NCBI GenBank assembly: GCA_964501785.1
Contig: CAZCUD010000002.1
Span: 197,836-261,835, forward strand
DNA from: an uncultured Bifidobacteriaceae bacterium
GTDB lineage: Bacteria > Actinomycetota > Acidimicrobiia > IMCC26256 > PALSA-555
Length of the DNA: 64,000 bases
Reading direction: 5' to 3'
Position 1 is the first letter of the stretch, and each line of letters starts with the position of its first letter. Position numbers and translations under genes: made by a program. The notes under the pieces are model-generated. The model searched no databases, was not told the origin of the DNA, and worked only from the letters and a program-made list of their open reading frames with translations. Below, piece by piece: positions 11,718-33,318 of the stretch.

Positions 11718-11719
11718 CA

Positions 11720-13183: not shown

Positions 13184-13184
13184 G

Positions 13185-15320: not shown

Positions 15321-15337
15321 TACTACGCACCGTAGGA
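15321..15337. promoter_or_regulatory. BlaI-type box TACTAC-N5-GTAGGA
   Basis: Upstream of the 15385-17458 operon. Confidence 0.7.
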
Positions 15338-15384
15338 TGTCGGCTGGCGGTGGGACCGCCCCGGAATCGAAGAGGAGGCGCCCA

Positions 15385-16472: not shown

Positions 16473-16477
16473 AGACC

Positions 16478-17458: not shown

Positions 17459-17873
17459 GCCGCAGACCGTCCGCCGGCCATCCCGTTCGAGAGCGAGGGA
17501 TCACCGCGGCGCCGCGATCGCGACGGGGCGTACTCCCCGCTCGTTAGAACGTCGGTGTCGCATTGATGGAATTGGTTGACAGCGGTACCGCGCGCGAGCG
17601 GCGGAAGTCGATGCCTGCGACAACGCGTGCGACCGAGTAGAGGCGCGTCGCATCGAGGAACCACGGGCGACCCAGGGACGACGTCTCGCAGCGATGCGCC
17701 GGTCTTTGGCTACTCCCCGCGACGCTTTTACCGGACGCGGGGTCCTGACAGGACAACACCCGCTAGACCCGAGTGGTCTGTCTGAATGGTCGGGAGGGCA
17801 TCGCGTGCCTCGCGATCGTGCTCCGCGAAACATCAGGATCTCGGCTCTCACGAGTAGGAGCGGCTCTTGCAGA

Positions 17874-17894
17874 TATCATCGGTCGATTCCGATG
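17874..17894. promoter_or_regulatory. -10 (TATCAT) plus operator IR CATCGG-N6-CCGATG for ArsR-ATPase operon
   Basis: TANNNT at 17874-17879; perfect 6-bp IR at 17877-17894 overlapping the first ATG. Confidence 0.6.
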
Positions 17895-18236
17895 TATTCG
17901 CGGAAGACCACGATGGGGGCACCGGCGACAGACATCCAGCTGGTCGCGAAGCTGCTGCGCGGGTTCGGTGATCCGCTCCGCTTGGCAATCCTCGACGCCC
18001 TGGCCGACGGCGAGTGTCGCGTCACCGATCTGGTGCACCGGCTGCACAGCTCGCAGGGCAATGTCTCCGGGCACCTGGCCTGCCTTCGGGACTGTGGGCT
18101 CGTGGCCGACCGCCCCGAGGGCCGTCAGACCTTCTATCGAATCGCGGGTCCCGAGGTGGTCGCCGTGCTTCGCGCCGCGGAGCAGCTGCTGAGCGCGCAT
18201 GGTCGGGAGATCGCGCTGTGCGCGAACTACCGCTGA
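17892..18236 (+). CDS. ArsR/SmtB family repressor, CmtR-like
   Basis: FGDPLRLAIL and SGHLACLRDCG plus a C-terminal Cys. Start is 17892 or 17913. Confidence 0.9.
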   Translation: MYSRKTTMGAPATDIQLVAKLLRGFGDPLRLAILDALADGECRVTDLVHRLHSSQGNVSGHLACLRDCGLVADRPEGRQTFYRIAGPEVVAVLRAAEQLLSAHGREIALCANYR

Positions 18237-20164
18237 TGCCAGTGACGGGCGCGGATCGCCCAGGGCATGGACGGCTGCGTGTCTGGCAGAGCCGTGAGGT
18301 GCAGTGGTCCGCGGCGTCGGGGGCACTCCTGGCCGCCGGGTATCTCGGATCGTGGGTCGGCCTGTCCGACACGGCCGCGACCGCGATCTGGATCGTCTCG
18401 GTGCTCGCCGGCGCGCGCTTCTTCGCGATCGAAGCGATGCGCGAGCTCTTCGGCAAGTGGCAGGTCGACATCGAGCTGCTCATGACGGTGGCGACCATCA
18501 CCGCGGGCGCGCTCGGTCTGTGGGAGGAAGCCGCTGCGCTGGCCTTCTTGTATTCGATCTCCGAAGCGCTCGAAGAATTCACCGAGGACAAGACTCGCGG
18601 CGCGATCGAAGCGCTGATGGACCTCGCCCCGAAGCGCGTCACGCGGCTCACCGAGCACGGCGACGAAGAGATCGAGCTCGAACAACTTGCAGTCGGCGAC
18701 CAGTTTCGGGTCCGTCCCGGTGAGAGCGTCGCGACCGACGGAATCGTCGAGAGCGGCAAAACAAGCCTCGACGAGTCCGCGATCACCGGCGAATCGATCC
18801 CTGTCGAGAAGAGTCCAGACGACCAGGTCTTCGCAGGCACACTCAACACGACCGGCGCGCTGATCGTCCGAGCCACCACCACGAGTGCCGAGAACACGCT
18901 CGCGAAGATCGTCAGCCTCGTCGCAGAGGCACAAGAAGCAAAAGGTCGAAGCGAACAGTTCCTGACCCGCTTCGCACGTGTCTACTCCCCGGCGGTGCTC
19001 CTATCAGGTGCGGTCGTCGCGGTCGTCGGCGGAACGGTGACCGACGACTGGGGCACCTGGATCGAGCGAGCAGCCACGGTCATAGTCGCCGCCGCGCCCT
19101 GTGCCCTCGTCATCTCGGTTCCGATCACCTACGTCGCCGCGATCGGCAACGCCAGCCGCCGGGGAATCCTCATCAAGGGCGGCATCTACCTCGAAGAGCT
19201 CGCCCAGGTACGCGTCATCGCGCTCGACAAGACAGGAACACTGACTAGAGGCGAACCCGCAGTCGTCGCCGCCCACTGCGGACCCGGCGTCGACGAGGCG
19301 ACACTGCTCGGAGCCGCCGCAGCAGTCGAGATCCACTCCGAGCATCCGCTGGCGACTGCTATCGTCGCCGCGGCACGGGTCCGCTCCATCGATCCCCTGG
19401 CCTCGACCCAGTTCCGAGCGATGACCGGAGCCGGCGCCGAAGCAACGATCAACGGAAGGCGCGTATCGGTCACTTCACCGCAGTACGCGACCGAACATGA
19501 CATCGACCTCGACGGTCTGAGCCCGATCGTCCCCCGCGAGCAGCGCGAAGGGCGCACCGTCGTTGTCATCGTCCGAGACCACCGACCCTTGGGCATTCTC
19601 GCCATCGCCGACATGCTCCGGCCCGGAGCACGCGACGCCATGGCAACGCTTCACCGCTACGGCATCGAGCGGCTCGTCATGCTCACCGGCGACAACAAGC
19701 TAACCGCCGAGCGGATCGGTGCCGCCGCGGGCATCAACGAGGTTGAAGCCGAGCTGAGTCCAGCTGACAAGGCCCGCCTGGTGGCGGACATGGCTGCGGA
19801 AACGCACGTCGCCATGGTCGGGGACGGCGTCAACGACGCACCGGCCTTGGCAGCCGCCTCGGTCGGCATCGCGATGGGGACCGCCGGCAGCGACGTCGCC
19901 CTCGAGACCGCCGATGTCGCACTCATGGCCGACGACCTCACCAAGCTCACCACAGCGCTGGACATCGGACGCAGAACCCGTCGCGTCGTTCACCAGAACC
20001 TCATGCTCGGCATCGGCATCCTCGTCCTCCTGGTCCCCGGCGCGCTCGCCGGGCTGTTCGCCCTCCCCATCGCCGTCCTCGCGCACGAGCTCTCCGAGCT
20101 GGTCGTCATCCTCAACGGCACGCGCCTCGCTCGAACCAACCAAGAAGGCCTGAAAGGGCGATGA
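18236..20164 (+). CDS. heavy-metal P1B-type ATPase (Cd/Zn/Pb, CtpG/CadA-like, no N-terminal MBD)
   Basis: TGES, APC in the metal-binding TM helix, DKTGT, SEHP and GDGVND; TGATG coupling to the repressor. Confidence 0.93.
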   Translation: MPVTGADRPGHGRLRVWQSREVQWSAASGALLAAGYLGSWVGLSDTAATAIWIVSVLAGARFFAIEAMRELFGKWQVDIELLMTVATITAGALGLWEEAAALAFLYSISEALEEFTEDKTRGAIEALMDLAPKRVTRLTEHGDEEIELEQLAVGDQFRVRPGESVATDGIVESGKTSLDESAITGESIPVEKSPDDQVFAGTLNTTGALIVRATTTSAENTLAKIVSLVAEAQEAKGRSEQFLTRFARVYSPAVLLSGAVVAVVGGTVTDDWGTWIERAATVIVAAAPCALVISVPITYVAAIGNASRRGILIKGGIYLEELAQVRVIALDKTGTLTRGEPAVVAAHCGPGVDEATLLGAAAAVEIHSEHPLATAIVAAARVRSIDPLASTQFRAMTGAGAEATINGRRVSVTSPQYATEHDIDLDGLSPIVPREQREGRTVVVIVRDHRPLGILAIADMLRPGARDAMATLHRYGIERLVMLTGDNKLTAERIGAAAGINEVEAELSPADKARLVADMAAETHVAMVGDGVNDAPALAAASVGIAMGTAGSDVALETADVALMADDLTKLTTALDIGRRTRRVVHQNLMLGIGILVLLVPGALAGLFALPIAVLAHELSELVVILNGTRLARTNQEGLKGR

Positions 20165-20618
20165 CGTCCGACCGGCAGCCCAGCGCGAAGACCGTTCGAC
20201 GCGCTCGCTTCGTGCCCGCCGCGGCTACTCCTGGCTCACCCGCTTCTACGATCCGGTACTCAGGATCACGACGCGCGAACACGCTTTACGAGCCACCTCC
20301 TCGAACGATTTGAACTCGATACCGCGTCCTCGCATCTCGACATCCGGCTGCGGAACCGGGACGTTCGCCGTCATGGCGAAGCAAGCCAACCCAGCACTTC
20401 GCGTCGTCGGACTCGACGCCGATCAAGACATGCTCTGCAAAGCACGGTGTAAAGCCCTCAAAGCCGGCGCCGACGTCGACTGGATCGAAGGCTCAGCTAC
20501 GCAGATTCGAGTCGTGAACGGGTCGTCGATCGCGTCGCATCGAGTTTGCTCTTTCACCACCTCGAACACGACGCCAAACTCGATGATGTTGCGCACCCAA
20601 CTGCCAGTGCGGCGCTGA
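20161..20618 (+). pseudogene. frameshifted, truncated class I SAM methyltransferase
   Basis: RFVPAA / YSWLTRFYDPVLR / GCGTGTFAVMAKQANPALRVVGLDAD fall in different frames; the C-terminus decays. Confidence 0.7.
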
Positions 20619-20855
20619 ACTCGCGGTGAGCGCCCGCGTGCGGTGAACACGTATGCCTGGCCCCGATTCGATTGCCGCATGCCGAACAGCACCGCGCCAG
20701 AACCGGATTCGCGATCGTGCGCATCGTGCGCGAGTTCTGCACGCTCGACGAGACGTGGGAACTCAGAGCGATCCTCGGGCGACTACCTCCGAGCGAGCGC
20801 CGACCAGGATCCTGTGGAACCGGGGGACCGGATGCGACCTGAGAAGGGAGGAACG

Positions 20856-21218
20856 GTGCGTCATCTCGTGAGTGCCGTCGCGCTGTTGGCATTGGTCGGT
20901 ACCGCATGTGGCAGCGGTGACGGTGGGCAGACGACTGGCCCGGCTTCGCCAAAGCCCACCGGTGCGCAGGCACAGGACGCCGAGCTCGCGCGGGGCCGCG
21001 CGGTCTTCGTGAACAACTGCGCGCGCTGTCACGGCGCGCGCGGTGAGGGGGGCATCGGCGTGCAGCTCTCGGACGGTCGCGTGTCGAGCCGGTACCCGGA
21101 CATCGACGACCAGATCGCCGTCATCAGCGGCGGGAAGAACGCGATGCCGTCGTTTGGTGGTGACCTGACTCCCGAGCAGATCCGGGCCGTCGCCCGTTAC
21201 GAGCGCGAGGTCCTCTGA
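20856..21218 (+). CDS. lipoprotein c-type cytochrome (monoheme)
   Basis: GGGAGG RBS, lipobox-like VGTAC, CARCH heme motif and NAMPSF axial Met. Confidence 0.9.
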   Translation: MRHLVSAVALLALVGTACGSGDGGQTTGPASPKPTGAQAQDAELARGRAVFVNNCARCHGARGEGGIGVQLSDGRVSSRYPDIDDQIAVISGGKNAMPSFGGDLTPEQIRAVARYEREVL

Positions 21219-21228
21219 GGCCGACCAG

Positions 21229-23130
21229 GTGACGACACCGCTCAGCCGCTCTGGACCGCGACGCGTCGGCCGACGTGCCGGCGTCGTTGTCGCGGCAGCG
21301 CTCGTCGCGGTCGTGGCGCTGGCATCGCCGGCCTCGGCGCACGCGGTGCTCGTGTCGTCCACGCCGAACGCCGCGCAGGTCCTCGATGCGAGCCCAGACG
21401 AGGTCACCCTCGACTTCAGCGAGGCGGTCGAGGTGAACCTCGGCTCCGTCCGGCTCTACGACGAGGAGGGGAACCGCCTCGACCTCGGCGACATCTCCAC
21501 CGGACCCGACGACGTCGTGCACGCCACCGTGCCCGAAGAGCTCGGCGAGGGGTCGTACGTGGTCACCTGGCGGGTGATCTCCGCTGACGCACACCCCATC
21601 CGAGGCGCGTTCACGTTCCAGATCGGCACCGGGTCGGACGCGACGAGCCCGCGGCTCGAGGACCTCGCGCGCCAGCTCACCGACGAACAGACCGGTGATC
21701 GCGTCGTCGGGGTGCTTCTCGGAATCGCTCGCTGGGGCGTGTTCGCCGGCATTGCGGCACTCGTGGGTGGGCTCGTGTTCGTGTCACTGGTCGATCGTCA
21801 GGCGCGCCACGCCCGACGGGCCCGCCGCCTCGTGTGGGGCGGGTGGGCACTCTGCTTCAGTGCGACCGCAGTCGGCCTGCTGCTCCTCGGACCGTACGGC
21901 GCGGGGGTGGGGTTGGGCGACGTGCTCGACTCCGTCTTGCTTCGTGACGTGCTGGGCAGTCGCTACGGGCTCGCGTGGCTCATCCGTCTCGTCGTGTTGC
22001 TCGCCGCGATTCCGCTGGTACGCATGCTCCTCGGGTCACAAGCCGACGCGCGCCGCCACCCTCGATGGGTCGCGCCCCTCAGCGGGATCGGTCTGGGTGT
22101 CTTGCTCGCGATCACCGTCGCGCTCGCGGGTCACGCGACGACAGGCGACTACATTGAGGCCGCGTTCGCGGCCGACGTGCTGCACGTCGTATCGATGGCG
22201 GTGTGGGTCGGCGGCCTCGCGGTGCTCACGTTCGTCACTCTCGGCTCGAAGGACGTCGCGCGTCTCGAGAGGGTGCTGCCCCGCTGGTCGCAGGTGGCGC
22301 TCATCTCCGTCGCCGTCGTCATCGCCACCGGCACGTTCCAAGGCTGGCGTCAGGTGCGCGTCCTCGATGCACTGCGAGAGACCGAGTATGGGCGGCTGCT
22401 GATCGTCAAGCTCATCGTCGTCCTCATCATGCTGCTCTTCGCGTTCCGCGCCCGCCAGATCGTCGGCCTGCTCCACTGGTGGTGGACCGAACCATCGGCG
22501 CAGCAGTCGACACGCGATCGCAGCCATCGCGACGCGCCGGACGAAGTCCTCACCGTCCGGGGTGGCGTCGATGACGACAGCACAGGCAACGATCGGGGCG
22601 CTGCGGCCGAGTACAGCGACGGGGACGATGACACGAGAAACGACAACGACCCCGACGACGACGAGTGGGTCGATGACGGGCGCGAGCTGCGCCTCCTGCG
22701 CCGCGGCGTCACCGTAGAGGTCGTTCTCTCCGTGCTCGTACTCGTGGTGACCGCACTCCTCGTGAACTCGGTCCCCGCGGAGACCGCTCGCGACCTCACC
22801 GCGGAGGGCGCGACGGGGGTTCGGCTCGAATCGGCGGACCTGTCAGTCGAAGTCGATGCCGCGCCCGCGCGAGCAGGTGCCAACGACATCCACGTATACA
22901 CACTCAGTCCCGCAGGCAGCCCCGTCCCCGTCGACGAGCTAACGCTCACGCTCGAGCTGCCCAAACTCGACGTCGCGCCGATCAACGTGCCGCTGCGCAT
23001 GCTCACCTCGTTCCACGGCTACTCCCCTGGGTTCGACATCCCCATCGCGGGCGACTGGCACGCCACCGTCAAAGCCCGCCTCGACGACTTCAACCAGACG
23101 ACCCTGGAAGGGACGCTCGAGATCCGCTGA
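21229..23130 (+). CDS. CopC-CopD fusion copper-resistance protein
   Basis: HAVLVSSTP...DAHPIRG (CopC); GHA and HVVSMAVWVGG (CopD); acidic loop; C-terminal soluble domain. Confidence 0.9.
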   Translation: MTTPLSRSGPRRVGRRAGVVVAAALVAVVALASPASAHAVLVSSTPNAAQVLDASPDEVTLDFSEAVEVNLGSVRLYDEEGNRLDLGDISTGPDDVVHATVPEELGEGSYVVTWRVISADAHPIRGAFTFQIGTGSDATSPRLEDLARQLTDEQTGDRVVGVLLGIARWGVFAGIAALVGGLVFVSLVDRQARHARRARRLVWGGWALCFSATAVGLLLLGPYGAGVGLGDVLDSVLLRDVLGSRYGLAWLIRLVVLLAAIPLVRMLLGSQADARRHPRWVAPLSGIGLGVLLAITVALAGHATTGDYIEAAFAADVLHVVSMAVWVGGLAVLTFVTLGSKDVARLERVLPRWSQVALISVAVVIATGTFQGWRQVRVLDALRETEYGRLLIVKLIVVLIMLLFAFRARQIVGLLHWWWTEPSAQQSTRDRSHRDAPDEVLTVRGGVDDDSTGNDRGAAAEYSDGDDDTRNDNDPDDDEWVDDGRELRLLRRGVTVEVVLSVLVLVVTALLVNSVPAETARDLTAEGATGVRLESADLSVEVDAAPARAGANDIHVYTLSPAGSPVPVDELTLTLELPKLDVAPINVPLRMLTSFHGYSPGFDIPIAGDWHATVKARLDDFNQTTLEGTLEIR

Positions 23131-23152
23131 CCGCACTCACGCTCCTTCGAGA

Positions 23153-23362
23153 TCAATCGTCGCGTCGAGTCTCGAGCCAACGCTCGATGTCGCTGGAGCG
23201 GTAGCGGACGTGTCGTCCGATCCGATGGCCGAGGGGTCCTTGGCGTTGGTACCGCCATCTGTAGATCGTGGCGATGGGAACGTCGAGGTACGCGGCGAGC
23301 TCGGCGATGCTCCACAGTTGCTCGCCACCTCGATCGGGTTGCTGGGGCCGGGTTCTGGGCAT
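23153..23362 (-). CDS. excisionase-like HTH protein (AlpA/HTH_17)
   Basis: LWSIAELAAYLDVPIATIYRWR...GRHVRY. Confidence 0.85.
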   Translation of the reverse strand: MPRTRPQQPDRGGEQLWSIAELAAYLDVPIATIYRWRYQRQGPLGHRIGRHVRYRSSDIERWLETRRDD

Positions 23363-23401
23363 GTTGGCCTTCCGTGAGTCGGCTGAGCGAGTCGAAGGCA
23401 G

Positions 23402-23938
23402 TCAGCGCATTACCTCGAGCTGATGCGTGAGGAGCGCGGCGATGGTGTGGCTCCGAGTCGAGTCGAGGTGTTCGACGAGAGCGTCGATCGCTGCGCGCTC
23501 CGCGTTTGAGAGCACCAGCGTGACGGGGGTTCGCCCTTGAGGTCGTTGCACGAGACGTCGCGGCGCGGCCACTCGGCTCTCTTCAACGAGTCGGTCGCGC
23601 TGGTCTTGGTACGCGACCATGACGAGATCTGCGAGCGCATAGCCGTCACGAGTGAGAGACCGGACGCGTTCGGCGATCTCCACGGGCAGTGTGAGGCCCA
23701 CCTTGTGGCGTGGATCGCCGCGCGTCGGTGCCGGCGGGACGGGGCCGAGCGGGCTCCGGCGAGGTGGAGCCTTGTCACCCGCGGCGGGGGCCTTTGGGTG
23801 CTCACGAACCCCCGCAGGCGATTCGTCCACGCGTGTCGCACGCCGGTCGGGTGCGGCATCGGGCTCGGGGGCCTCGTCGTCGGCCGAGTCGCGACCGACG
23901 CGAAAGCCGGAGAGTTGGCCTTGGGTGAGGCGTGGCAT
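23402..23938 (-). CDS. ParA partner with two predicted ribbon-helix-helix units
   Basis: Starts 2 nt after the parA stop. Disordered N-terminus, then KVGLTLPVEIAERV..ALADLV and PVTLVLSNAERAAIDAL..STRSHTIAALL. Confidence 0.65.
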   Translation of the reverse strand: MPRLTQGQLSGFRVGRDSADDEAPEPDAAPDRRATRVDESPAGVREHPKAPAAGDKAPPRRSPLGPVPPAPTRGDPRHKVGLTLPVEIAERVRSLTRDGYALADLVMVAYQDQRDRLVEESRVAAPRRLVQRPQGRTPVTLVLSNAERAAIDALVEHLDSTRSHTIAALLTHQLEVMR

Positions 23939-23940
23939 GC

Positions 23941-24762
23941 TCAGCGGATGCGCTGCAGGATCTCGTCTGCCAGCGCGACGTAGTCGCCGGCCAGCGTCCG
24001 CGCACCTGTTGCGAGGCTGCGTGTCTCACGCGCGGCGCGCGCATACTCGAGCGCGACCAGCCCGTGGCGTGATTGGTCGATCGCTCCGCGTTCGGACGCT
24101 CGAACGATCGAGTCGAAGACGACCTGTCGATCGCCGAACGCTTGCTGGAGTTCCTCGCGGGCCTGGCTGCGTATCCGTGTCGCCGCGGTCGAGATAGCGA
24201 ACAGGACGACGCCGGCGAGCTCGCCCGTCGGGAGGCCACTCAGGGAGAGCGCGCTCAGTCGTTCGGAAACACGACTGAGGCCGAGGAGGCTCTTGTCGTC
24301 GGCCTTCGTCGGGACGACGATCCAGTCGGCGGCGACCAATGCCGCGTCTTCGAGCAGGCCTCCCGCGGGTGCGGTGTCGATCACTGCAACGTCGTAGCGA
24401 CTGGCAGCGGTATCGAGGGCGCGAACGACGTCGTGGATCGGGGCGTCGGGCTGGCGATGCGCTTGCGCGGTGAGCGCGGCGGCGAGTTGGTCGGTGCGCG
24501 CGCCGGCGGCGACGAGATCGAGATTGGGTCGGACGTCGGAGATTGGTGTGACCGATGTGCCGCCTTGGATTGCGAGGCTGAGCGCGAGACCTTGGTCGGT
24601 GTCTTCGATGCCGAGATCGACCGCCAGGTTGCCTTGGGCGTCGAGGTCGAGCGCGAGCACCCGGTGGCCTTGTGTCGACCAGACGACGGCCAGGTTGCTG
24701 ACGCACGAGGTCTTGCCGCAGCCGCCCTTGCCGTTGACGACCGCGATGATGGTCGGAGCCAT
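23941..24762 (-). CDS. parA: ParA family ATPase
   Basis: Deviant Walker A KGGCGKTS, LDLDAQGNL and IDTAP; GAGGAG RBS. Confidence 0.92.
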   Translation of the reverse strand: MAPTIIAVVNGKGGCGKTSCVSNLAVVWSTQGHRVLALDLDAQGNLAVDLGIEDTDQGLALSLAIQGGTSVTPISDVRPNLDLVAAGARTDQLAAALTAQAHRQPDAPIHDVVRALDTAASRYDVAVIDTAPAGGLLEDAALVAADWIVVPTKADDKSLLGLSRVSERLSALSLSGLPTGELAGVVLFAISTAATRIRSQAREELQQAFGDRQVVFDSIVRASERGAIDQSRHGLVALEYARAARETRSLATGARTLAGDYVALADEILQRIR

Positions 24763-24944
24763 CGCTCCTCCTTCGACTGGGACGAACGCCATCGGGAGTT
24801 CGTGCTCTTGCCCCAATGTGCGTTCGCGACTCGAAACCCCACACCCGATCGTCCGGTTGCTTCGCGGCGCGCACTCACAAGATGACGCGCCGCGGGTGAC
24901 CATGCGCCTGCCACGTGGCGAGCGTCTGGGCGCCAGATGGTTCG

Positions 24945-27803
24945 CTACAAGCCGAGACCGAGGTCGAGGTCGAGGTCGAGATCCAGATCAGCGGGCCCGG
25001 GAGCGATCTCGAGTGCGAGTGGATCACGAGCGATGGTCAGGCCCGCGAGTCGTTCGTGGTACTCGACGAGTGCGTCTCGTTCGACGCCAGGTGGTGTGTC
25101 GGTGAGAAGGGTTCTGGTCTCTCGGATCCGGGTGTGCAGGACCTCGGGCTGCTCAGGGTGTGCGAGATTGCGGCGCAGCACGCTGTGCGCGGCCCAGTCG
25201 GGTCGCTCGTGGTGGGTGACCTGGGCGAGGACCTCTGCGGGGCTCGGCATCGGATCGACGTGTCCGTGCGCGGTGTCGCGGTCGGCTTCCGGTTCGCAGA
25301 TCGCATAGGCGTGGTTGGCGTGGCGGCCGCGGCTCAGCGCGACGTAGAGCTCGTTTCCGTAGGTTGTCGGCGTGACGAGGACGTGACTCTCGTCGACAGT
25401 CAGGCCTTGAGCGCTGGCGATCGTGGTCGCGTAGGCCAGGCGCACGTGCGCGGCGACGTAGTCGGCGGGCAGCTCGACGCGTGCCCCGTGACGCGAGTGC
25501 TCGGCGGTGAGGGTGCCTCGGTGCTCGTCGAGCGCGACGACGCGCCAACGGTCGTGGTTGCGGACGTGGTCGGCGGCTGCGGGCCCGTAGCGCAGGCCTC
25601 GGTCGTTGCGGCGCGTCTCGATCTGGTCGCCGATCCCGATGGTCTGGCTCCCGGTCGGGGTGGCGAGCCGCAGCCCGCCGGGGGCGATCTGGCCGACCGC
25701 GACCCGGGCGGCGCGGGCTCGAGCGGCGAGCGCGTCGACGTTTCGGTGATCGGGAGCGAGCATGATCGTGTCGACGCCGGCGTGGTGGGCGTTCCACCAC
25801 CGTTCGAACAGCGCACGCGTCGCGTCTGCTTCGGAGCCGCCGTGGACGCGTCCATGGGCCCGGAACGGCATCAACCAGGCGCCGTCGCCACGGCGAAGCT
25901 TCGCCAGCGCGGCCGCTTCCCATTCATGGTGGAAGCGGTGCGTGGCGCGCAACTCGATCGCCCCGAGGTCTTCAGCGAGGGCCGCGAACATCCCGCCCGC
26001 GGCGCGGATCGCACCGAGCTGGCGGTCGTCACCAACGAGGACGAGCTTGGCTGCGGCGGCTCCGACCGCGCTCACGAGTCGGTCCAGATCACGGGTTGCG
26101 ACCATGCTGGCCTCGTCGACGATGACGACGTGGCGCGCCGAGAGCCGCCACGTCTCGGGCGCCGTGCCCCGTTCGTTCCAGTCCAGGAACTTCGCGAGCG
26201 TGTCGGCGGTGACCCCTGCTTCGGTCCGCAGGATCTGCGCCGCGACGGCAGTGTGCGCGAGACCCACGACGCGGTACCCCGAGCCATACCAGGCGCGCGC
26301 GGCAACTCGCACCAGGCTCGTCTTGCCCGACCCGGCCGGCCCGATGACGGTCTCGACCCGTCGCCCTCGGACTGTGAGGAGTCTCAGCGCGGCCAGCTGA
26401 TCGGGTCCGGGCGGGCGAGCCTCGGCCGCGACGGCCCGGTCGAGCAGCGCGGCGTCGACGACCCCGATGCGGGCCACACGCCCGACCGCGGCCGTGTGGA
26501 GGATCCGGCCCTCGACGGCGAGCAGGTCGCGTGTCGTGTAGCGGATCTGCTGGGGCGGATCCCAGACGCTCCAGCCGTCGCGGCGCACCAGCGCCGGTGG
26601 CACCTCGGCACGGGTGGGCGCGTGCAGACACACCACCTCGCGATCCGCGAGCAAGTTGTCCACAGCCATCTCCACAAGGCCGAGGACTCCTTCGGCCGTC
26701 CCGCCGCCGACGTCGAGCGGATCGAGGTCCCGGGCGATCACCTGGACCAGATCGCGACGCGCGAACGTCGCCCGCTGCGCCGTCACTTCGCCAAGCACGG
26801 CTGCCGGAGCGTGGCGGGGCGGGCGCTCCGCCCGCTGGAGCGCGTCGTGCACCAGCGAGGCTGGCTCGTATCCCAAGGCACGAACCTCTGTGGCCCAGCG
26901 AGCGTGGAGCGCCTGATCGCCAACGGCGGTGTGGGCCTTGGGCGCCCGCGTGGCCAGCACTGCCAGGCGCGAGACGCGGCGGCGCTCGTCGGGCTCGAGG
27001 GGTCGAGCCAGCGCGGCCTCGAGCTCGGCGACCTTGGCCTGCACGGCCGGCTCGATCTGGCTCGCTCGTGTGCTGAACCGTGCCAGGACGTCCTCGGGCA
27101 TGCCGACCAGTTCGGCCTGGCCGTGCTCGCTCACCGGTTCCCACTCGACGCCCAGACGACGGGTCAGCTCGGATCGAAGCGCGGCCTGGTACAGCATCCC
27201 GGCGGTCTTGGCCTCGGCGTAGAGCGCGCGACCGTCCAGGGCGCGCCACGATCCGTCGCGGGGATCGCGGACCTTGTTCAGGATCAAGCAGTGCGAGTGC
27301 AGCTGCGGGTCGAGCGCCCGACTGGTCCGATGCTCGAAGCGCGCCACGACTAGACCATCGGTGTCGACGACCATCGTGCCGTTGTGGCCGCGTCGCGTCA
27401 GCGCCGCGTGCTCTTCGAGGTAGCCGAGACCCGCATCCTCGACCGCAGCGACGTGCGCCGCCTTCACGACGGCCCGCAGGTCCGGACCGCCGAGCGCGAA
27501 TAGGACCGACACCGACTTCGGCGCCGAGAACGTCGCGTCGAAGCCGGCGACACCATCCGGACTGCGCCAGCCCGTTCCCAACGGCACACCCGTGTGCGGG
27601 TGACGCGCCTCGCCGAACGCGCGCCGCAGCGACTCGGCGTCGGCCTCCCCCACGACACCTGCCGAACCCGCGCCGCGCCCGGACCAGACGCCGGGCGCCT
27701 CGCCGGTCCCCGCGTAGTAGTCCTCCAGGCCACTACCGACCTCACGCGCGTAGTACTCCCACGCGGACGCGCCCATCCGACCGATGCTCAGCACCAGCGA
27801 CAC
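24945..27803 (-). CDS. MOBF (TrwC/TraI-like) relaxase fused to RecD-like SF1 helicase
   Basis: YY..EDYY, FDATFSAPKSVS and DPQLHSHC (HUH); helicase GPAGSGKT, DEASM, GDDRQL and AQGLTVD; DLDLDLDLGLGL tail. Confidence 0.95.
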   Translation of the reverse strand: MSLVLSIGRMGASAWEYYAREVGSGLEDYYAGTGEAPGVWSGRGAGSAGVVGEADAESLRRAFGEARHPHTGVPLGTGWRSPDGVAGFDATFSAPKSVSVLFALGGPDLRAVVKAAHVAAVEDAGLGYLEEHAALTRRGHNGTMVVDTDGLVVARFEHRTSRALDPQLHSHCLILNKVRDPRDGSWRALDGRALYAEAKTAGMLYQAALRSELTRRLGVEWEPVSEHGQAELVGMPEDVLARFSTRASQIEPAVQAKVAELEAALARPLEPDERRRVSRLAVLATRAPKAHTAVGDQALHARWATEVRALGYEPASLVHDALQRAERPPRHAPAAVLGEVTAQRATFARRDLVQVIARDLDPLDVGGGTAEGVLGLVEMAVDNLLADREVVCLHAPTRAEVPPALVRRDGWSVWDPPQQIRYTTRDLLAVEGRILHTAAVGRVARIGVVDAALLDRAVAAEARPPGPDQLAALRLLTVRGRRVETVIGPAGSGKTSLVRVAARAWYGSGYRVVGLAHTAVAAQILRTEAGVTADTLAKFLDWNERGTAPETWRLSARHVVIVDEASMVATRDLDRLVSAVGAAAAKLVLVGDDRQLGAIRAAGGMFAALAEDLGAIELRATHRFHHEWEAAALAKLRRGDGAWLMPFRAHGRVHGGSEADATRALFERWWNAHHAGVDTIMLAPDHRNVDALAARARAARVAVGQIAPGGLRLATPTGSQTIGIGDQIETRRNDRGLRYGPAAADHVRNHDRWRVVALDEHRGTLTAEHSRHGARVELPADYVAAHVRLAYATTIASAQGLTVDESHVLVTPTTYGNELYVALSRGRHANHAYAICEPEADRDTAHGHVDPMPSPAEVLAQVTHHERPDWAAHSVLRRNLAHPEQPEVLHTRIRETRTLLTDTPPGVERDALVEYHERLAGLTIARDPLALEIAPGPADLDLDLDLDLGLGL

Positions 27804-27829
27804 TCACAGCACGCAGGCGGGCGCCTCCC

Positions 27830-27856
27830 GCATCGACGATGCAACTGTCTGTCGCC
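27830..27856 (+). other. candidate oriT/nic: GCATC-GAC-GATGC AACTGTCT^GTCGCC
   Basis: Hairpin plus TGTCT, 27 nt upstream of the relaxase start; same layout as R388 nic as recalled (GCACC-GAAA-GGTGC GTATTGTCT^ATAG). Confidence 0.55.
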
Positions 27857-28467
27857 TCCTTGATCGTGGGCCGCGAGATGGGTTGAAAGGGCGAGTAGCG
27901 AAACGGCCGGGTGCTCGCGCTGACGGGTGCCATCGCTGGCAGTGACGTGATCGCGGCGGGAGGTTCGTCAAGAGCCGCGGTCGTTGGATTGCCGCCCGCT
28001 CGGTGTTGCGAAGCGACGCGCGCCGACGCGCGCTGCTGCGAATGAACGCCGAACGAGGCGCGCGCGTGGCGATCGATCATGAGCGTGCGGTCGTGAAGCG
28101 CGCCGACGTGTTCCAAACATCGCGCGAGGTCGCGACGCGCGCGCGAGCGCTGCCCAAATCGACCCGCGAGTTGAGCGTCAGGCGATCGACATTGTCCCGT
28201 TCACGCGTCGCCCGACCGGTCGGTCGCCCGGGCAAGTCGGTTGAGCGTGATGCCGAACCTGGCTTCCACCGATTCCAGATCAGCGATGGACCTGACACGA
28301 CCGTCGTATCGAAGTCGACGGCGCGAGAATCGGCGATCCACTCGCCCGGCGGAGTTGATCGCGACCAGCCCGCCAACACGCGAGTCGAGACGATGCGGGA
28401 GCGCCTCAGAACGCGCTGCGGCTTGATCGCGCCGCGGCGCCCGACAACTTCAGGTATGCCCTGTTTG

Positions 28468-28857
28468 TCAGACGGTCTCGACGGAGCATCGAGAGCCGGG
28501 CGCGTTGGCAAGTCGACGGTCGGCGGTGAGGAGCGGGCAACCGAGCGCTTCGGCCAAGCCGACGTAGCACGCGTCGTACGACGTGATGTTGTTCCGCAGC
28601 GCCCAGGCCCGGCGGAGCAGTGGCCCGGTTGGGTACACGACCAGCGGAAGGCCGAGGAGGTCCTCGATCGCCGCGTTCGCTTGCCTGGTCGACAGCAAAT
28701 CCGCGCCGGCTTGGCGCCTGATCACGGACATGACCTCGATGCGAAGGAGGTCAGGACCGGCGATGGTCTCGCCTCTGAGTCGAGAGCGGAACGCGTCACC
28801 ATCGGCACCGCCGTCGGCGACGACGGGGGCGATCACTGATCCATCAACGACGAGCAC
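28468..28857 (-). CDS. vapC: VapC-type PIN toxin
   Basis: VLVVDGS (Asp), RIEV (Glu), SYDACY (Asp) and LLTADRRL. Confidence 0.9.
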   Translation of the reverse strand: MLVVDGSVIAPVVADGGADGDAFRSRLRGETIAGPDLLRIEVMSVIRRQAGADLLSTRQANAAIEDLLGLPLVVYPTGPLLRRAWALRNNITSYDACYVGLAEALGCPLLTADRRLANAPGSRCSVETV

Positions 28858-29074
28858 GGTCGGCGTCGAGCGCGGAGATGGCATCCCGACGGGAGAGACG
28901 ACCCTTGGAACGGTGTTCGATTCGTTCGAGCATCTCGTCGAGGGTCGGTGTGTCGGCGATCGCGACGAGTTGTGCCGCCAGGAACTGTTGGAGGGACTGT
29001 CCGGCGAGCTCGGCCCGGCGAATCAGCGCCTCGTGGATGTCATCCGGGACATCTCGGACCTGAATGTTTGGCAT
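28844..29074 (-). CDS. FitA-like RHH antitoxin
   Basis: MPNIQVRDVPDDIHEALIRRAELAGQSLQQFL; overlaps vapC. Confidence 0.88.
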   Translation of the reverse strand: MPNIQVRDVPDDIHEALIRRAELAGQSLQQFLAAQLVAIADTPTLDEMLERIEHRSKGRLSRRDAISALDADRARR

Positions 29075-29092
29075 GCATGCATAGTACATGCA
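29074..29092 (-). promoter_or_regulatory. leaderless promoter/operator of the TA operon
   Basis: TACTAT -10 (29086-29081) 6 nt before the ATG, inside IR TGCATG-N7-CATGCA. Confidence 0.65.
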
Positions 29093-29423
29093 CAACAGGC
29101 ATGGCGCAACGAGCAGGAGCGATTGGCCGCCGACCTCACGCCAGCCACCGGGGCTCAAATTCGTATTGCCCAACGGATCGGGTCGCGCGCGTGTAGATCC
29201 CGACGGCGCGAGCGCGCGATCCAAGGGTTCGATGCAAGGCGCTGCGCACCCACGCAGAACGTTCAGCGTGCGCGACAAGAATGCGCGCTCGACGCTTCAC
29301 AAGCCTCGACGAGCGTGTCATCAATGTCGCCGGTAGCCGAGTGCCGCGCCCGCCGTGGGAACGGCCCCACGGCGGACACAGCGGCTCTGCGGACCACGCA
29401 CGTTGGCCGACGAGGAGGAAGTC

Positions 29424-30626
29424 ATGCCGCACGTCGAACGGCGGCGTCGTGGCGACGCGAACGTCTGGCGCGCTCGGTATCGCGGACCCGACGGGCGCGA
29501 ACGGTCCCGAACCTTCACCCGAAGGACTGACGCCGAAGCATTTCTGGCCACCGTCGAGACAGCGAAGCTGCGCGGCGAGTGGCGCGACCCGGCCTTGGGG
29601 CGTACGCGCTTCGAGGACTTCGCGGCCCATGTCGAGGCGACGCGTCTGAACCGTCGCGCGACGACGCGGGCTCGCGACGCCACGCTGATGCGCACGCGTG
29701 TGCTGCCGGCGTTCGGGACGCGACCCATCCTCACGATCACGTCAACCGACGTGAAGGCCTGGGTCGCCTCACTGGAAGCCGCGGGGTTGGCGTCGAGCAC
29801 GATCCGGATCTGCTACCAGCTCCTGGCGCGGGTGTTCACCGAGGCCGTCGACGCCGGTCTCATCGCTACGTCACCATGTCGCCGCGTCGCGCTGCCGGCC
29901 GATGTGCGGCGCGAGCCTGCGCTGCTCACGCCCGACGACGTGTCCCGGGTCGCCGGGGTCATCGAGCCCCGATACCGCGTCTTGATCCTCGCCGCGGCCT
30001 ACACCGGCTTGCGATGGGGCGAGCTCGCCGGCCTGCGCGTGAGCCGAATCGACTTCCTGCGTCGACGCATCGACGTCGCCGAGATCCTGATCGAGGTCGA
30101 CGGCGCGCTGAGCTTCGGTCCGCCCAAGACGCGCAGCTCACGCGCCAGCGTGAGCTTCCCGCCCTTCCTCGCCGACGAGCTCGCTGCCCAGGTCGCCGGG
30201 TTCCCAGACCCCGACCGTCAACGCGGCCTGATCTTCACCAGCGACGACGGCACGCCCCTGCGCCGGTCGAACTTCCGTCGACGCGTCTGGCTGCCCGCCG
30301 TTGAAAGCGCCGGACTCCCCTCTCGGGCGCGCTTTCACGATCTGCGCCACGCGTGTGCGTCATGGCTGATCCACCAGGGCGCGAACCCGCTCGAGGTCGC
30401 GGCGAAGCTGCGCCACGCGCGCGTCACGACCACGCTCGCGACGTACGGTCACCTGTTCCCGGGCACCGACGACCGCCTCGATGCGCTCCTCGCGGAGACG
30501 TTCGCGCGCGCTGACACGGGCGTCAGCGAGGAATCTCCCGCGGCCCCACCGCGGCCCAGCCGCGGCCCAGCACACTTGAGGACGCGCGTCAGCGGCGCAA
30601 AAAGCGCCGTTGACCAGCATGTTTAG
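29424..30626 (+). CDS. int: tyrosine integrase of the tRNA-Val island
   Basis: GAGGAGG RBS; TGLRWGE (R), HDLRH and YGH (Y), with LRH in place of the usual LGH; stops 2 bp before att. Confidence 0.95.
   Translation: MPHVERRRRGDANVWRARYRGPDGRERSRTFTRRTDAEAFLATVETAKLRGEWRDPALGRTRFEDFAAHVEATRLNRRATTRARDATLMRTRVLPAFGTRPILTITSTDVKAWVASLEAAGLASSTIRICYQLLARVFTEAVDAGLIATSPCRRVALPADVRREPALLTPDDVSRVAGVIEPRYRVLILAAAYTGLRWGELAGLRVSRIDFLRRRIDVAEILIEVDGALSFGPPKTRSSRASVSFPPFLADELAAQVAGFPDPDRQRGLIFTSDDGTPLRRSNFRRRVWLPAVESAGLPSRARFHDLRHACASWLIHQGANPLEVAAKLRHARVTTTLATYGHLFPGTDDRLDALLAETFARADTGVSEESPAAPPRPSRGPAHLRTRVSGAKSAVDQHV
30538..30569. repeat. candidate integrase arm-binding sites, 3 x CCGCGGCCC(A/C) (11-bp period) inside int 3' end
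   Basis: Matches 5902-5922. Confidence 0.7.
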
Positions 30627-30629
30627 GTG

Positions 30630-30701
30630 TGGGCGATAGAGGATTTGAACCTCTGACCTCTTCCGCGTCAAGGAAGCGCTCTCCCCCTGAGCTAATCGCC
30701 C
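30630..30701 (-). tRNA. tRNA-Val(GAC), CCA not encoded
   Basis: GGGCGAT acceptor stem, CTTCC-TTGACGC-GGAAG anticodon arm and GGTTCAAATCC T arm. Confidence 0.96.
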
Positions 30702-30765
30702 GTCAAGGGACCCGCCAGGTTACCAGCGGCGCCTCTCGGTCACTGCACCCGTCCCGAGATGCCGA

Positions 30766-33318
30766 TCACTCGGTGGCGATCGCGTCCAGCACGTCGAGGC
30801 GGCTCGCCCGCCATGCGGGGTACAGCGCGGCGACGATCCCGGCGACCATCGACAAGACGACGAAGATCGCCAGCTGGCCCACCGGGACGCGCACCTGGGT
30901 GATGCCCTGCGACTCGAGCGAGATCGTGAACACCCATCCCCACACGAGGCCGAGGACCGTGCCGACGAGTCCACCGAGGAGCGCCACGATGACCGACTCC
31001 CCGCGAACCATGCGTCGCACCTGACGTCGGGTCGTGCCGACGACGCGCAGCAGGCCGAGCTCTCGGGTCCGTTCGAACACCGACAAGGCGAGCGTGTTCA
31101 CGATGCCGAGGACCGCGATGAGCTCGGCGAGGAGCAGCAGCGCGACGGTCACCGCGAGGAAGCGGTCGATCGCGCGCTCCTGCTCGTCCTTGTACTCCTC
31201 GCGGGTCAGGACGTCGATGTTGGGGAAGTCGTCGCCGAGCGCCTGCCGGATCGCGACCCGGGCAGCGCCGGTGTCGCCGTCGGTCGCCGACACGTAGACC
31301 AGCGAGTCCTGGTCGTCGGGGCCGAACCCCCGCTCGTACGCGGGCTGGGCGACGACGAACGGCACCGGGAACCCGCCGGTGAAGTCCTCCTGCTCGTAGA
31401 TGCCCGCCACGCGCAGCGGGAAGAACCCGCGCGGGAACTGCACCGCGCGGGTCTCGCCGACCTCGAGACCGAGACGCTCGGCGGTGTCGCGATGCACGAG
31501 CATGCCGTCGTCGCCCATGTCGCCGATGCTCCCCCGGCGCACGCGAAGGTCGACGACGTCGCCGAGCGCATCCGGGTCCACACCGGCGACGGTCTCCTCC
31601 CCCAGGTCGACGCGCACGTTGCCGAAGCGGAACGAGGCGACGGCATCCAGCTCGGGCAGGTCGCGGAGACGATCGGCGACCTGGGGCGAGAAGCCCGCGA
31701 ACTGCTGCGCCTTCAGCACGTAGTCGGCGCGGATCCCGCGGTCGACCGCCTCGGCGACCGACGCCTTCGCCGACTCCCCGAAGATCGCGACGAGCCCCAC
31801 CAGCGCGAGCCCGACGACGAGGGCCGACGCGGTCGCGGCGGTTCGACGGGGATTGCGCATCGCGTTGCCGCGGGCCAGCGTGCCGGTGACCCCGATCAGG
31901 CGCAGCGGTCGCCCGAGCCCTCCTGCGAGTGGCCGAGCGAACGTCGCGAGCAGCACGACGACACCGAAGAAGAGGAGGAGCGCGCCGAGCGCGACGAGCC
32001 AGATCTCGTCGGTGACGTCGACCGCGGCCCGCGATCGGTCCACACCGATCACGAGGCACGGGATGCTCGCGAGCACGAGGAGCGTTCCGAGGATCCGGCG
32101 TCGGCGGAACGGGCGCGGACGCTCCGGCTGCACGTCGTCGATCGCCGCGATCGGCGGGATCCGCGCGGCGCGCACGGCCGGGATCACCGACGATGCGACC
32201 GTGACCAGGACGCCGACGGCGAGCGAGGCGATGATCGTGCGCTCCGCGACGACGAGCGCGCCGTCCGGCACGTCGAAGCCGAGGCTCGAGACCAGCGCGA
32301 GCAACAGCGCGGCGAGCCCGACGCCTGCGGCGAGCCCGAGCAGCGATGCCACGAAGCCGACGAGTGCGGCCTCGAGCACGACCGCGACGACGACCTGCCG
32401 TCCGCTTGCACCCATTGCCCGGAGCAACCCGAACTCACGGGTCCGCTGCGCCACCAGGATCGAGAACGTGTTGAAGATGATGAACGCGCCGACCACGAGG
32501 CCGATGGCCGCGAAGCCGAGCAGCAGCTGCGTGAGCAGCGAGAAGAACTCGGTGAAGTCGCTGCTGCGATCGGCGGCGAACTCGCTCGCCAGGTTCACCT
32601 CGTAGGCGGCACCGAGCTCCGCGCGCAGCCGCTCCTGGATCGCCGCGTTCGACGCGCCCGGCGCCGCCGTCACGTTGACCGCGTCGACCATGCCGGGGGC
32701 GCCGAACACCCGTTGCGCGGTCTGGAGGTCGAACGCGGCGAACGTGACGGCGAGCGCGTCGAGCTGGTTGCCGAAGCCGAAGAGCCCGACGATCTCGAAC
32801 CGCTCCTTGGGCCCCTCGAGCAGGACGTCGACCTCGTCGCCGACCTCGAAGCCGTGGCGCGCCGCGGTGCCGGCGTCCATCGCGACCTCGCCGTCGGCCT
32901 CCGGCGCGCGCCCCTCGCTCAGGCGGAGCGGCTCGTCCGCGTCGGGCGCCTGCGACCAGGTGATGCCGATGGTCGGCGCGCCCCCGTTCTGGATGCTCTC
33001 GCCCTCCGGGTCGACGAACTGCGCGTAGTCCTCGAGCACGCCGTAGGCGGAGCCCACGCCCTCGACGCCGCGCACCTGACGGACCAGCGACGCGGGCGCC
33101 CGGTCACGCTCACCGTCGCCGCCGAAGGGGGCGCGAGGGCGCACGACGACGTCGACCCCCTCGACGGTTCGGTCGAAGAAGGTCTGGAACGACGCGTCGA
33201 GCGTGTCGGTGAGGGTGTAGGTGCCGGCCACGAAGCTGACGCCGAGCAGCACCGAGAGCGCGGTCAGGGCCAAGCGCACCTTGCGCGCGAGCAGCCCTCG
33301 GATCGTGGCCTTCCACAT
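30766..33318 (-). CDS. ABC transporter permease with two FtsX-like domains
   Basis: NTFSILVAQRTREFGLLRAMGA and NTLALSVFERTRELGLLR; 850 aa. Confidence 0.92.
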   Translation of the reverse strand: MWKATIRGLLARKVRLALTALSVLLGVSFVAGTYTLTDTLDASFQTFFDRTVEGVDVVVRPRAPFGGDGERDRAPASLVRQVRGVEGVGSAYGVLEDYAQFVDPEGESIQNGGAPTIGITWSQAPDADEPLRLSEGRAPEADGEVAMDAGTAARHGFEVGDEVDVLLEGPKERFEIVGLFGFGNQLDALAVTFAAFDLQTAQRVFGAPGMVDAVNVTAAPGASNAAIQERLRAELGAAYEVNLASEFAADRSSDFTEFFSLLTQLLLGFAAIGLVVGAFIIFNTFSILVAQRTREFGLLRAMGASGRQVVVAVVLEAALVGFVASLLGLAAGVGLAALLLALVSSLGFDVPDGALVVAERTIIASLAVGVLVTVASSVIPAVRAARIPPIAAIDDVQPERPRPFRRRRILGTLLVLASIPCLVIGVDRSRAAVDVTDEIWLVALGALLLFFGVVVLLATFARPLAGGLGRPLRLIGVTGTLARGNAMRNPRRTAATASALVVGLALVGLVAIFGESAKASVAEAVDRGIRADYVLKAQQFAGFSPQVADRLRDLPELDAVASFRFGNVRVDLGEETVAGVDPDALGDVVDLRVRRGSIGDMGDDGMLVHRDTAERLGLEVGETRAVQFPRGFFPLRVAGIYEQEDFTGGFPVPFVVAQPAYERGFGPDDQDSLVYVSATDGDTGAARVAIRQALGDDFPNIDVLTREEYKDEQERAIDRFLAVTVALLLLAELIAVLGIVNTLALSVFERTRELGLLRVVGTTRRQVRRMVRGESVIVALLGGLVGTVLGLVWGWVFTISLESQGITQVRVPVGQLAIFVVLSMVAGIVAALYPAWRASRLDVLDAIATE

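Follow-up and report, generated by a model that had tools for sequence, protein, structure and literature searches.

The window analysed here is a stretch of 64,000 nucleotides (about 70% G+C) from contig CAZCUD010000002.1 of an uncultured actinobacterial genome assembly. Its segment 23153–27856 is best read as the operon that serves the mobility and maintenance of an integrative mobilizable element (IME) of 24.9 kb, located in a tRNA-Val gene. The operon encodes a MOBF relaxase fused to a helicase, a ParA-type ATPase, a protein of 178 residues and an excisionase. Homology to plasmid cassettes indicates that ParA and the 178-residue protein are a pair of plasmid-partition origin, of the type I kind in which the ParB component is a ribbon-helix-helix (RHH) protein. 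The best reading of the pair, to which we give an even chance, is that it would partition the excised, relaxase-replicated circle of the element. An initial annotation of the segment had described a VirC1/VirC2-like module and had offered partition or a VirC-like transfer device as alternatives. The features of the operon, in window coordinates, are the following.

23153–23362, minus strand: excisionase (Xis) of 69 residues, last gene of the module (HTH_17 1.5e-13, TIGR01764 excisionase model).
23402–23938, minus strand: 178-residue ParA partner with a conserved peptide (1–15), a disordered Pro/Arg-rich linker (~16–65) and a predicted double RHH domain (~66–178).
23941–24762, minus strand: ParA/Soj-type deviant Walker A ATPase, 273 residues from its likely start (Pfam AAA_31 2e-26, CbiA).
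24763–24944, minus strand: relaxase-parA spacer of 182 bp with small inverted repeats and no iterated array.
24945–27803, minus strand: MOBF (TrwC/TraI-type) relaxase fused to an SF1B helicase, 952 residues (TrwC 8e-82, AAA_30 4e-51, NCBIfam MobF 5e-76).
27828–27851, plus strand: candidate nick region of an origin of transfer (oriT), reading CCGCATCGACGATGCAACTGTCTG, ~25–50 bp upstream of the relaxase start.

The four genes proposed in the initial annotation are all present, intact and co-oriented on the minus strand. ParA has the deviant Walker A sequence VNGKGGCGKTS, and no N-terminal helix-turn-helix (HTH) domain was found in it with Pfam or NCBIfam models, as is expected of a type Ib ParA. 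The parA open reading frame (ORF) extends to 24903. The likely start is placed at 24762 (MAPTIIAVVNGKGGCGKT) because of the alignment with L002, L003, L011 and L014 (such labels denote related loci or plasmids carrying relatives of the ParA/178-residue pair) and because the sequence GGAGGAG, a ribosome-binding site, precedes it. The PDB neighbours of ParA are the ParA of entry 8ray, the delta protein of pSM19035, and Soj. Omega, the partner of pSM19035 delta, is an RHH protein. Also in keeping with type Ib, the adaptor gene lies directly downstream of parA; the distance from the parA stop to the start of the RHH gene is 2 nt in the window and 2–3 nt in all related loci, and co-expression would follow from this coupling.

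By itself, the 178-residue protein has no sequence match in Pfam, NCBIfam or the PDB. A tblastn search of PLSDB and a contig scan with a single-sequence pattern gave no match, an exact-sequence look-up returned no contig, and four representatives are present among 1.84 billion clustered proteins. An AlphaFold2 model was built on an alignment of five sequences, before the plasmid homologues described below were found, and has a mean predicted local distance difference test (pLDDT) score of 55. It contains one unit with a strand at 79–83 and helices at 85–96 and 101–121, and a second with a strand at 138–142 and helices at 144–160 and 165–176. The pLDDT is 65–77 in these elements and <50 for residues 13–78, which are predicted to be disordered. 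The only strands in the model are those of the two strand-helix-helix units (79–121 and 138–176), and since DSSP assigns a strand only when it has a partner, the two would pair with each other as the ribbon of an RHH fold. A single-sequence AlphaFold prediction, with helices only and a pLDDT of 49, was discarded. The initial annotation had suggested a Foldseek comparison with VirC2, TraY and ParG. The top PDB neighbours of the model are three chains (E, F and G) from the relaxosome of the F plasmid, which were identified as TraY (101–112 columns, E 0.9–7, template-modelling score 0.34–0.42), and the best neighbour in a viral library is an annotated RHH protein, but all fold matches are non-significant (E 0.2–7).

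When a profile of 17 family sequences was compared to the PDB, 10 of the 11 matches were RHH proteins (NikR, CopG, MazE9, VapB26 and others), found on both units with E values of 0.04–1. Pfam RHH_1 matches 12 of the 17 family members at E ≤1, with a best value of 4e-4. Earlier PDB searches with small profiles were set aside, as they returned chance matches such as a polysaccharide lyase and antibody light chains. Alignment of RHH unit 1 to unit 2 with hhalign places the β-strand and helix A in register and is not significant. Each line is weak, but the lines converge, and a single-chain double RHH is the best reading of the protein. The disordered N-terminus and two RHH-like units described in the initial annotation are therefore supported by the AlphaFold2 model, the PDB profile matches and the RHH_1 matches.

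The N-terminal peptide, MARL[ST][QE]SQL[AST]GFR[VILT]G, is nearly invariant in 13 full-length members, in which it is followed by ~50 hypervariable Pro/Arg-rich residues and then by the conserved RHH domain. The peptide has two invariant arginines, R3 and R13, and is carried on a disordered linker, which would fit an arginine-finger tail that stimulates the ATPase of ParA. The ParA-partner adaptors ParG and omega have a similar layout of N-terminal tail and RHH domain. Because a spacing of about 2 nt is kept in every locus, and because the peptide is near-invariant on a variable linker, ParA and the small protein are regarded as a working pair, in agreement with the initial annotation.

The nearest plasmid ParAs, 38–40% identical to that of the island, are encoded by Gordonia pGKT3, Paenarthrobacter pTC1, Nocardioides pNOCA01, R. 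fascians pGS01, Glutamicibacter pGnB68, a Pseudonocardia plasmid and Microbacterium plasmid B. An ORF overlapping or abutting the parA stop in each of these plasmids encodes 180–220 residues with the same three-part architecture. It begins with the motif hydrophobic-x-G-[LF]-[KR], continues with a Pro/Ala-rich linker of 60–100 residues, and has a C-terminal part of two strand-helix-helix units ending ..SRSxLxxAALxAYL. The pTC1 pair constitutes genes 1 and 2 of its record (Paenarthrobacter aurescens AAur_pTC10001/10002). These partners are all annotated as hypothetical, and two are called ~100 residues too short, namely those at L022 1043–1621 and L004 5912–6577 (plasmids NC_018583.1 and NZ_CP012699.1 in RefSeq), with 116–117 residues annotated vs ORFs of 192 and 221 residues. 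Since the annotation is ~75–105 codons short and the ORFs start at the parA stop, the N-terminal motif and the linker are missing from the database proteins. No experimental study of the plasmid partner proteins was found in a limited literature search.

The alignment of the island family to the plasmid partner family with hhalign has a probability of 96% and an E value of 2.4e-9 over 100 columns that span both RHH units. Ten column-shuffled controls all had E values of at least 0.06, and a reversed control 0.15. This homology indicates that the island pair belongs to, and descends from, the plasmid ParA-adaptor family. In the profile of the plasmid partners, RHH unit 1 also has a weak alignment with ParG of pCE2 (E 1e-3). 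Upstream of parA, the plasmid cassettes carry iterated repeats of 10–13 bp, for example GCACTACCGCGCT three times in each of two arrays in pNOCA01 and CTTGCAATCT at least three times in the Microbacterium plasmid. Arrays were located at L029 157–205 and 427–475, L004 4788–4916 and L030 179–367, and include units containing ATGCAT. They resemble the centromeres of type Ib systems and are likely to be the centromere or operator sites of the double-RHH partners. The island pair and the plasmid cassettes thus share the ParA, the abutting or overlapping partner gene and the three-part layout of its product; however, the plasmid cassettes stand alone, often as genes 1 and 2 of the record, with their upstream repeats and not beside a relaxase gene, whereas the island pair is found between the relaxase and xis, with no such array. 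It is noted that in L004 (6593–10870) and L030 (2172–3963) the cassette is followed by a Tad-like block encoding a SAF-domain protein, an ORF, a CpaF-type ATPase and TadB/C-like proteins, and that in L004 a gene annotated as a conjugal transfer protein precedes the cassette of ParA and double-RHH protein.

Like the known partition systems with RHH adaptors, the island pair has a ParA that is small and lacks an N-terminal HTH, followed directly by the adaptor gene, whose product combines an RHH domain with a flexible N-terminal tail. It departs from them in other respects. The known adaptors, such as ParB of pCXC100 (PMC3074162), are proteins of 70–120 residues that have one RHH and function as homodimers. 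The island adaptor has the predicted RHH fold of a type Ib adaptor, but with two units in one chain, joined by a linker of 15–30 residues, instead of the single RHH of a small homodimeric protein. One molecule would then be equivalent to one "dimer", in an integrated element that has no Rep and in which no centromere repeats were identified. The presence of two RHH units per chain is the feature that sets the pair apart as a variant of type Ib.

Pattern scans recovered 3 genomic and 12 metagenomic loci related to the module, and a clear relative of the RHH protein is encoded in 14 of these. Nine loci (L001–L003, L010–L012, L014, L016 and L019) have a contig that extends upstream of the RHH gene into parA, and every one of them shows the order relaxase-ParA-RHH-Xis; L017 keeps the 3' end of parA at its contig edge. 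Downstream of the RHH gene, xis is conserved throughout the related loci, and the two genes overlap in L001. Identities to the window proteins are 59–79% for the relaxase, 64–77% for ParA, 50–57% for the RHH protein and 62–74% for Xis; with identities in the range of 50–79%, the maintenance of open reading frames throughout is evidence of selection. An integrase gene directly and divergently upstream of the relaxase in L002 and L003 (the cargo of L002 being copper-related) defines a minimal backbone of five genes (int, relaxase, parA, RHH and xis), which is intact in many independent loci with different cargo.

There are three loci without ParA. L009 (3096–3732) and L013 (3360–4186) contain only an N-terminally truncated RHH gene and xis, the remnant in L013 being directly after a tRNA gene and beside housekeeping genes, and L018 (1369–1959) contains a full RHH gene with no parA upstream. 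L002 and L003 are two diverged copies of the element, ~600 kb apart on a single 1.04-Mb contig of a metagenome-assembled genome (MAG), CAWGDC010000001.1, and the relaxase gene of L003 is split by a frameshift (5872–6918 / 6920–8692). The contig of L001 (CAMDCC010000051.1) is part of a MAG labelled Bifidobacterium breve, yet it has 67% G+C and carries this IME backbone; it has probably been mis-binned.

The relaxase has all the features of a MOBF enzyme, with N-terminal tyrosine pairs, a three-histidine motif of the HxDxxxxxHxH type and a fused SF1B helicase. Its catalytic motifs are intact (YY17–18, YY29–30, FSAPKSVS, HRTSRALDPQLHSH, and the Walker A GSGKT and Walker B of the helicase), and the NCBIfam MobF score is 256 bits vs a cut-off of 100. 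The nearest plasmid homologues are only 32–36% identical. Its C-terminus (24945–24990) is an acidic Asp-Leu repeat, ...ADLDLDLDLDLGLGL, and the L001 relaxase has a similar tail. This tail may serve in recognition by a coupling protein, or it may be no more than low-complexity sequence. Directly after the relaxase stop codon, the window and L001 have a palindrome in common (CATCTGGCGCCCAGACG / CGTCTGGCGACCAGATG).

Upstream of the relaxase gene, the plus strand has a palindrome, GCATC-nnn-GATGC, followed by AACTGTCTG. The 24-bp block, which reads CAGACAGTTGCATCnnCGATGCGG on the coding strand, has 22 specified bases that are invariant and unique in six of the six loci covering the relaxase upstream region, with diverged flanks. 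In pCE2 and in an Iamia plasmid, the mobF gene is likewise preceded by an arrangement of this kind. In R388 the nick region consists of a hairpin and then ATTGTCT|AT at the nick, a layout that the block resembles. We consider the block a candidate oriT, in which the relaxase is predicted to cut after ...AACTGTCT; given this orientation, the relaxase gene would be the last to arrive in a recipient. Folded as single-stranded DNA, the palindrome gives a short hairpin that is not thermodynamically outstanding (z −0.59).

The borders of the element are given by two exact 46-bp direct repeats at 5752–5797 and 30629–30674, found by a pattern search for which the chance expectation is none, and they delimit 24,923 bp. 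The remaining features of the island are as follows.

5752–5797, no strand assigned: left attachment-site repeat (attR-like), an exact 46-bp copy of the 3' part of tRNA-Val (pattern search, alignment).
5844–23130, no strand assigned: cargo of mercury and copper resistance and redox genes (Pfam scans, ORF translations).
28468–29278, minus strand: VapBC-type toxin-antitoxin, with a PIN toxin at 28468–28884 (Pfam PIN 8e-11) and the antitoxin within 28844–29278 (FitA-like_RHH 2e-6).
29355–30626, plus strand: tyrosine integrase of 423 residues (Phage_integrase 9e-20; 77% identical to the L003 integrase).
30629–30701, minus strand: tRNA-Val(GAC) (ARAGORN), of which bases 30629–30674 are the right attachment-site repeat.

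The cargo encodes, according to Pfam, a MerA-like reductase, two ArsR proteins, a major facilitator superfamily transporter, a DUF2752 protein, redoxin and TlpA-CcdA-like proteins, a BlaR1/BlaI-like pair, two CopC-CopD proteins, a BNR protein, a heavy-metal P-type ATPase and a cytochrome c. The only stretch of the island without an assignment is that of ~600 bp upstream of the relaxase (27860–28468), where coding statistics are poor. Two ORFs there, 27742–28116 on the minus strand and 28003–28839 on the plus strand, were rejected as extra genes, as they show poor GC by codon position and no family matches, and are conserved only where they overlap the relaxase start. VapBC, likely an addiction module, is missing from L002 and L003, in which tblastn gave no match.

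The gene content is that of a canonical IME. A site-specific recombinase and attachment repeats at a defined target are present, with the tyrosine integrase gene ending 2 nt from the 3' end of tRNA-Val and Xis encoded in the operon. The element has its own intact MOBF relaxase and a candidate oriT, but genes for a coupling protein or for mating-pair formation are missing. In Pfam scans that covered every sizeable ORF of the island, no type IV secretion system (T4SS), type IV coupling protein (T4CP), FtsK/TraB, Rep or HTH-type ParB was found. These results agree with the initial annotation, both in its list of missing functions and in its diagnosis of an IME. Excision, and mobilisation by a helper, are predicted from this gene content. 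A 2017 review knew of no canonical IME with a MobF relaxase and of one actinobacterial IME (PMC5704250). It was therefore fair of the initial annotation to call the element type poorly described, and any "undescribed" status of a MOBF or actinobacterial IME is provisional, as it rests on that review.

We propose that ParA and the 178-residue protein are a type I, RHH-ParB ("Ib-like") pair taken over from actinobacterial plasmids. The 178-residue protein would be the DNA-bound adaptor, whose C-terminal half forms a full RHH "dimer" in one chain and binds a site on the element, and the peptide MxRLxxxQLxGFRxG on its flexible linker would contact ParA and stimulate its ATPase. Once the operon is switched on, Xis and the integrase would excise the island as a circle. 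The relaxase would then nick the conserved site just 5' of the gene that encodes it, and rolling-circle replication would follow, driven by the relaxase and its helicase. Nucleoid-bound ParA-ATP and the adaptor would spread the copies such that each daughter cell keeps one, with VapBC penalising loss. Finally, the circle would re-integrate, or a helper T4SS would export the relaxase-bound strand.

Between the two alternatives of the initial annotation, the homology to the plasmid cassettes tilts the balance toward partition. The adaptor-type N-terminal peptide, the 2–3-nt coupling, the conserved gene order and the closeness of ParA to pSM19035 delta also count for partition, and a toxin-antitoxin module in the element fits the theme of maintaining an extrachromosomal phase. 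There is precedent in integrative and conjugative elements (ICEs). The ICE PAPI-1 carries a Soj maintenance gene. Partition of excised forms is established for SXT/R391 (PMC4489591), and relaxase-dependent replication is established for ICEs (review, PMC5704250). SrpMRC of SXT/R391 and Soj of PAPI-1 are likewise plasmid-type segregation genes of an integrated element, and they act while that element is transiently a circle replicated by its relaxase. However, both elements are self-transmissible ICEs of Proteobacteria, and the SXT system is of the actin type (type II), whereas the island is a non-conjugative actinobacterial IME with a Walker-type ParA and a double-RHH adaptor.

Several points weigh against partition. 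The island has no Rep gene, and rolling-circle replication by the MOBF relaxase of an IME is assumed. The pair is situated inside the transfer and excision operon and not beside a replicon. An RHH accessory protein, such as TraY/TraM or TrwA, is normally required in MOBF relaxosomes (PMC12117103), and the 178-residue protein is the only candidate for this role in the conserved backbone. The structure model is of moderate confidence, with the mean pLDDT and the non-significant fold matches given above. Lastly, the iterated-repeat centromere that accompanies type Ib operons was not found in the window: there is no such array, but only small inverted repeats, in the spacer 24763–24944 or in 27860–28470, though degenerate sites could escape the search. 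Most of the related loci likewise showed no iterated array.

The relaxase-parA spacer is 370–450 bp long in L002, L003, L012 and L014, vs 182 bp in the window. No k-mers are shared or repeated across the related spacers. The window spacer has inverted repeats, ACGAAC-N12-GTTCGT at 24780–24803 and CGCGGCGCG-N14-CGCGCCGCG at 24863–24894, and possibly holds an internal promoter or operator; a scan for sigma-70 promoters and intrinsic terminators gave no sites. Two motifs were considered as centromeres and rejected. GCCCGCG occurs six to seven times, in both orientations, in the spacers of L002 (8661–8913) and L003 (8686–9088), ~8-fold over the locus background, but its enrichment is limited to these two loci, and neither the window nor the L001 spacer contains it. 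GCGATC seemed enriched upstream of the relaxase, but the whole window is rich in it (3.5x), with other windows reaching a similar level.

A role for the pair in the relaxosome, similar to that of VirC1/VirC2 or TraY and including a dual function in partition and transfer, is the alternative that survives best, even if we find it doubtful. A plasmid partition pair would have been re-purposed for transfer, with the adaptor bound beside the nick site and marking or bending oriT for the relaxase, in the manner of F TraY or of VirC2 at overdrive, and with ParA, recruited through the N-terminal peptide, assembling the relaxosome and bringing it to a foreign coupling protein. The position of the pair speaks for it, between relaxase and xis in a co-oriented block without a terminator-like site, when no plasmid cassette adjoins a relaxase; so do the lack, in this IME family, of the iterated repeats of those cassettes and the invariant 24-bp element directly upstream of the relaxase gene. 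The homologues that could be demonstrated are nevertheless parA-linked plasmid cassettes with centromere-like arrays, no binding site of the adaptor was identified near oriT, and the element has no T4CP or T4SS at hand.

The likeness to VirC is one of layout. In pTiC58, virC1 and virC2 are also 2 nt apart and adjoin virD1/D2, and VirC2 has ~200 residues. The N-terminal part of VirC2 is disordered and its C-terminal domain is a double RHH in a single chain, the same overall layout as in the island protein. In BLASTP, however, the island ParA matches VirC1 only in the P-loop (37 residues), and slightly better the type Ib ParA of pCE2. The RHH profiles do not match VirC2 in hhalign (E 0.24–0.55), and the VirC families PF07015 and PF07181 of Pfam are not matched. 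Moreover, the VirC system works with VirD2, a MOBQ-type relaxase, and with a resident VirB/D4 T4SS, while in the island the relaxase is of the MOBF class and both T4SS and T4CP are missing. Consequently, the VirC1/VirC2-like module of the initial annotation holds for architecture and gene neighbourhood, and as far as the sequence comparisons reach the pair is not a member of the VirC1/VirC2 family. Binding of a cis element and stimulation of the relaxase in the manner of VirC may be considered here by analogy, from the adjacency to the relaxase and the invariant upstream motif.

TraY is a further parallel. MOBF systems use RHH accessory proteins, and TraY of F, which partners a MOBF relaxase, is a single-chain double RHH, a monomer with the entire fold of an RHH dimer (PMC12117103); it is also the top PDB fold neighbour of the island protein. 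However, the Foldseek E values are of the order of 1 (0.9–7), the Pfam TraY model is not matched, and hhalign gives E 0.012–0.08, so that the protein does not qualify for the TraY family. F TraY lacks both a long disordered N-terminus with a conserved peptide and a ParA partner, and the island protein has both. In a bolder form of the proposal, ParA with the single-chain double-RHH adaptor would make up a distinct, widespread and unannotated subclass of actinobacterial type I partition systems, serving here as both centromere-binding and relaxosome accessory protein (the role of TraY or VirC2) and coupling segregation to hand-over to a foreign conjugation machine. We hold this to be unlikely.

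An improbable third explanation is that the double-RHH protein is a regulator, which, like many RHH proteins, represses or activates transcription, here of the relaxase-parA-xis block, and so sets the frequency of excision, ParA being accessory or a leftover of the captured plasmid cassette. Type Ib centromere-binding proteins double as repressors of their operons. The RHH gene is directly upstream of xis (overlapping it in L001), small inverted repeats lie just upstream of parA, and RHH and Xis remnants without ParA exist in L009 and L013, as does a full RHH gene without ParA in L018. On the other hand, ParA is 64–77% identical where it is whole, with all Walker motifs present, and the near-invariant peptide and translational coupling favour a stoichiometric partner of ParA. 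The loci without ParA also look like deletion remnants, two of the three having lost the RHH N-terminus. That the island is an inert relic, an integrated plasmid fragment with idle partition genes, might be read from the missing Rep gene and centromere array and from decayed copies (the L003 relaxase frameshift; truncated L009 and L013), but exact attachment repeats, intact catalytic motifs, and a five-gene backbone intact at 50–79% identity in many independent loci with different cargo make it very improbable.

It should be mentioned that the window holds a second, tiny integrated element at 59189–62838. The 3' end of a tRNA-Gly gene (62808–62838) is repeated exactly at 59189–59219. Between these repeats are a tyrosine integrase gene (61524–62657, minus strand), a PIN-domain protein gene (60057–60503, minus strand) and ORFs without family matches; G+C falls to 64–66%, and a ParD-like ORF (58559–59449, minus strand) overlaps the left repeat. 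As for the island backbone, the region 21000–32000 of the window is found, without differences, in short contigs at a low depth of 2–6x, in metagenomes that several independent studies obtained from wastewater, activated sludge and digesters. The occurrence of identical short contigs in several such metagenomes implies that the element or its host circulates in these settings.

The IME, the MOBF relaxase and the type I partition pair with an RHH adaptor are each of a known kind. What looks new is the single-chain double-RHH adaptor as the partner of ParA, its wide unannotated presence on actinobacterial plasmids, and its placement in the transfer and excision operon of a MOBF IME. In a recent survey, about half of the PLSDB plasmids had no identified partition system (PMC13245405). 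Many actinobacterial plasmids, in Rhodococcus, Gordonia, Nocardioides and relatives of Arthrobacter, have a partition adaptor that is annotated as hypothetical or too short. If true, a single-chain RHH "dimer" would be a new structural solution for a ParA adaptor, one that alters the stoichiometry of binding and permits asymmetric DNA sites. A compact backbone of five genes (int, MOBF relaxase, parA, adaptor and xis) moves the mercury and copper resistance cargo, and this IME family is a tractable system in which to ask whether the excised form of non-conjugative islands is actively maintained, or whether ParA-type ATPases bring such islands to the secretion machine of a helper.

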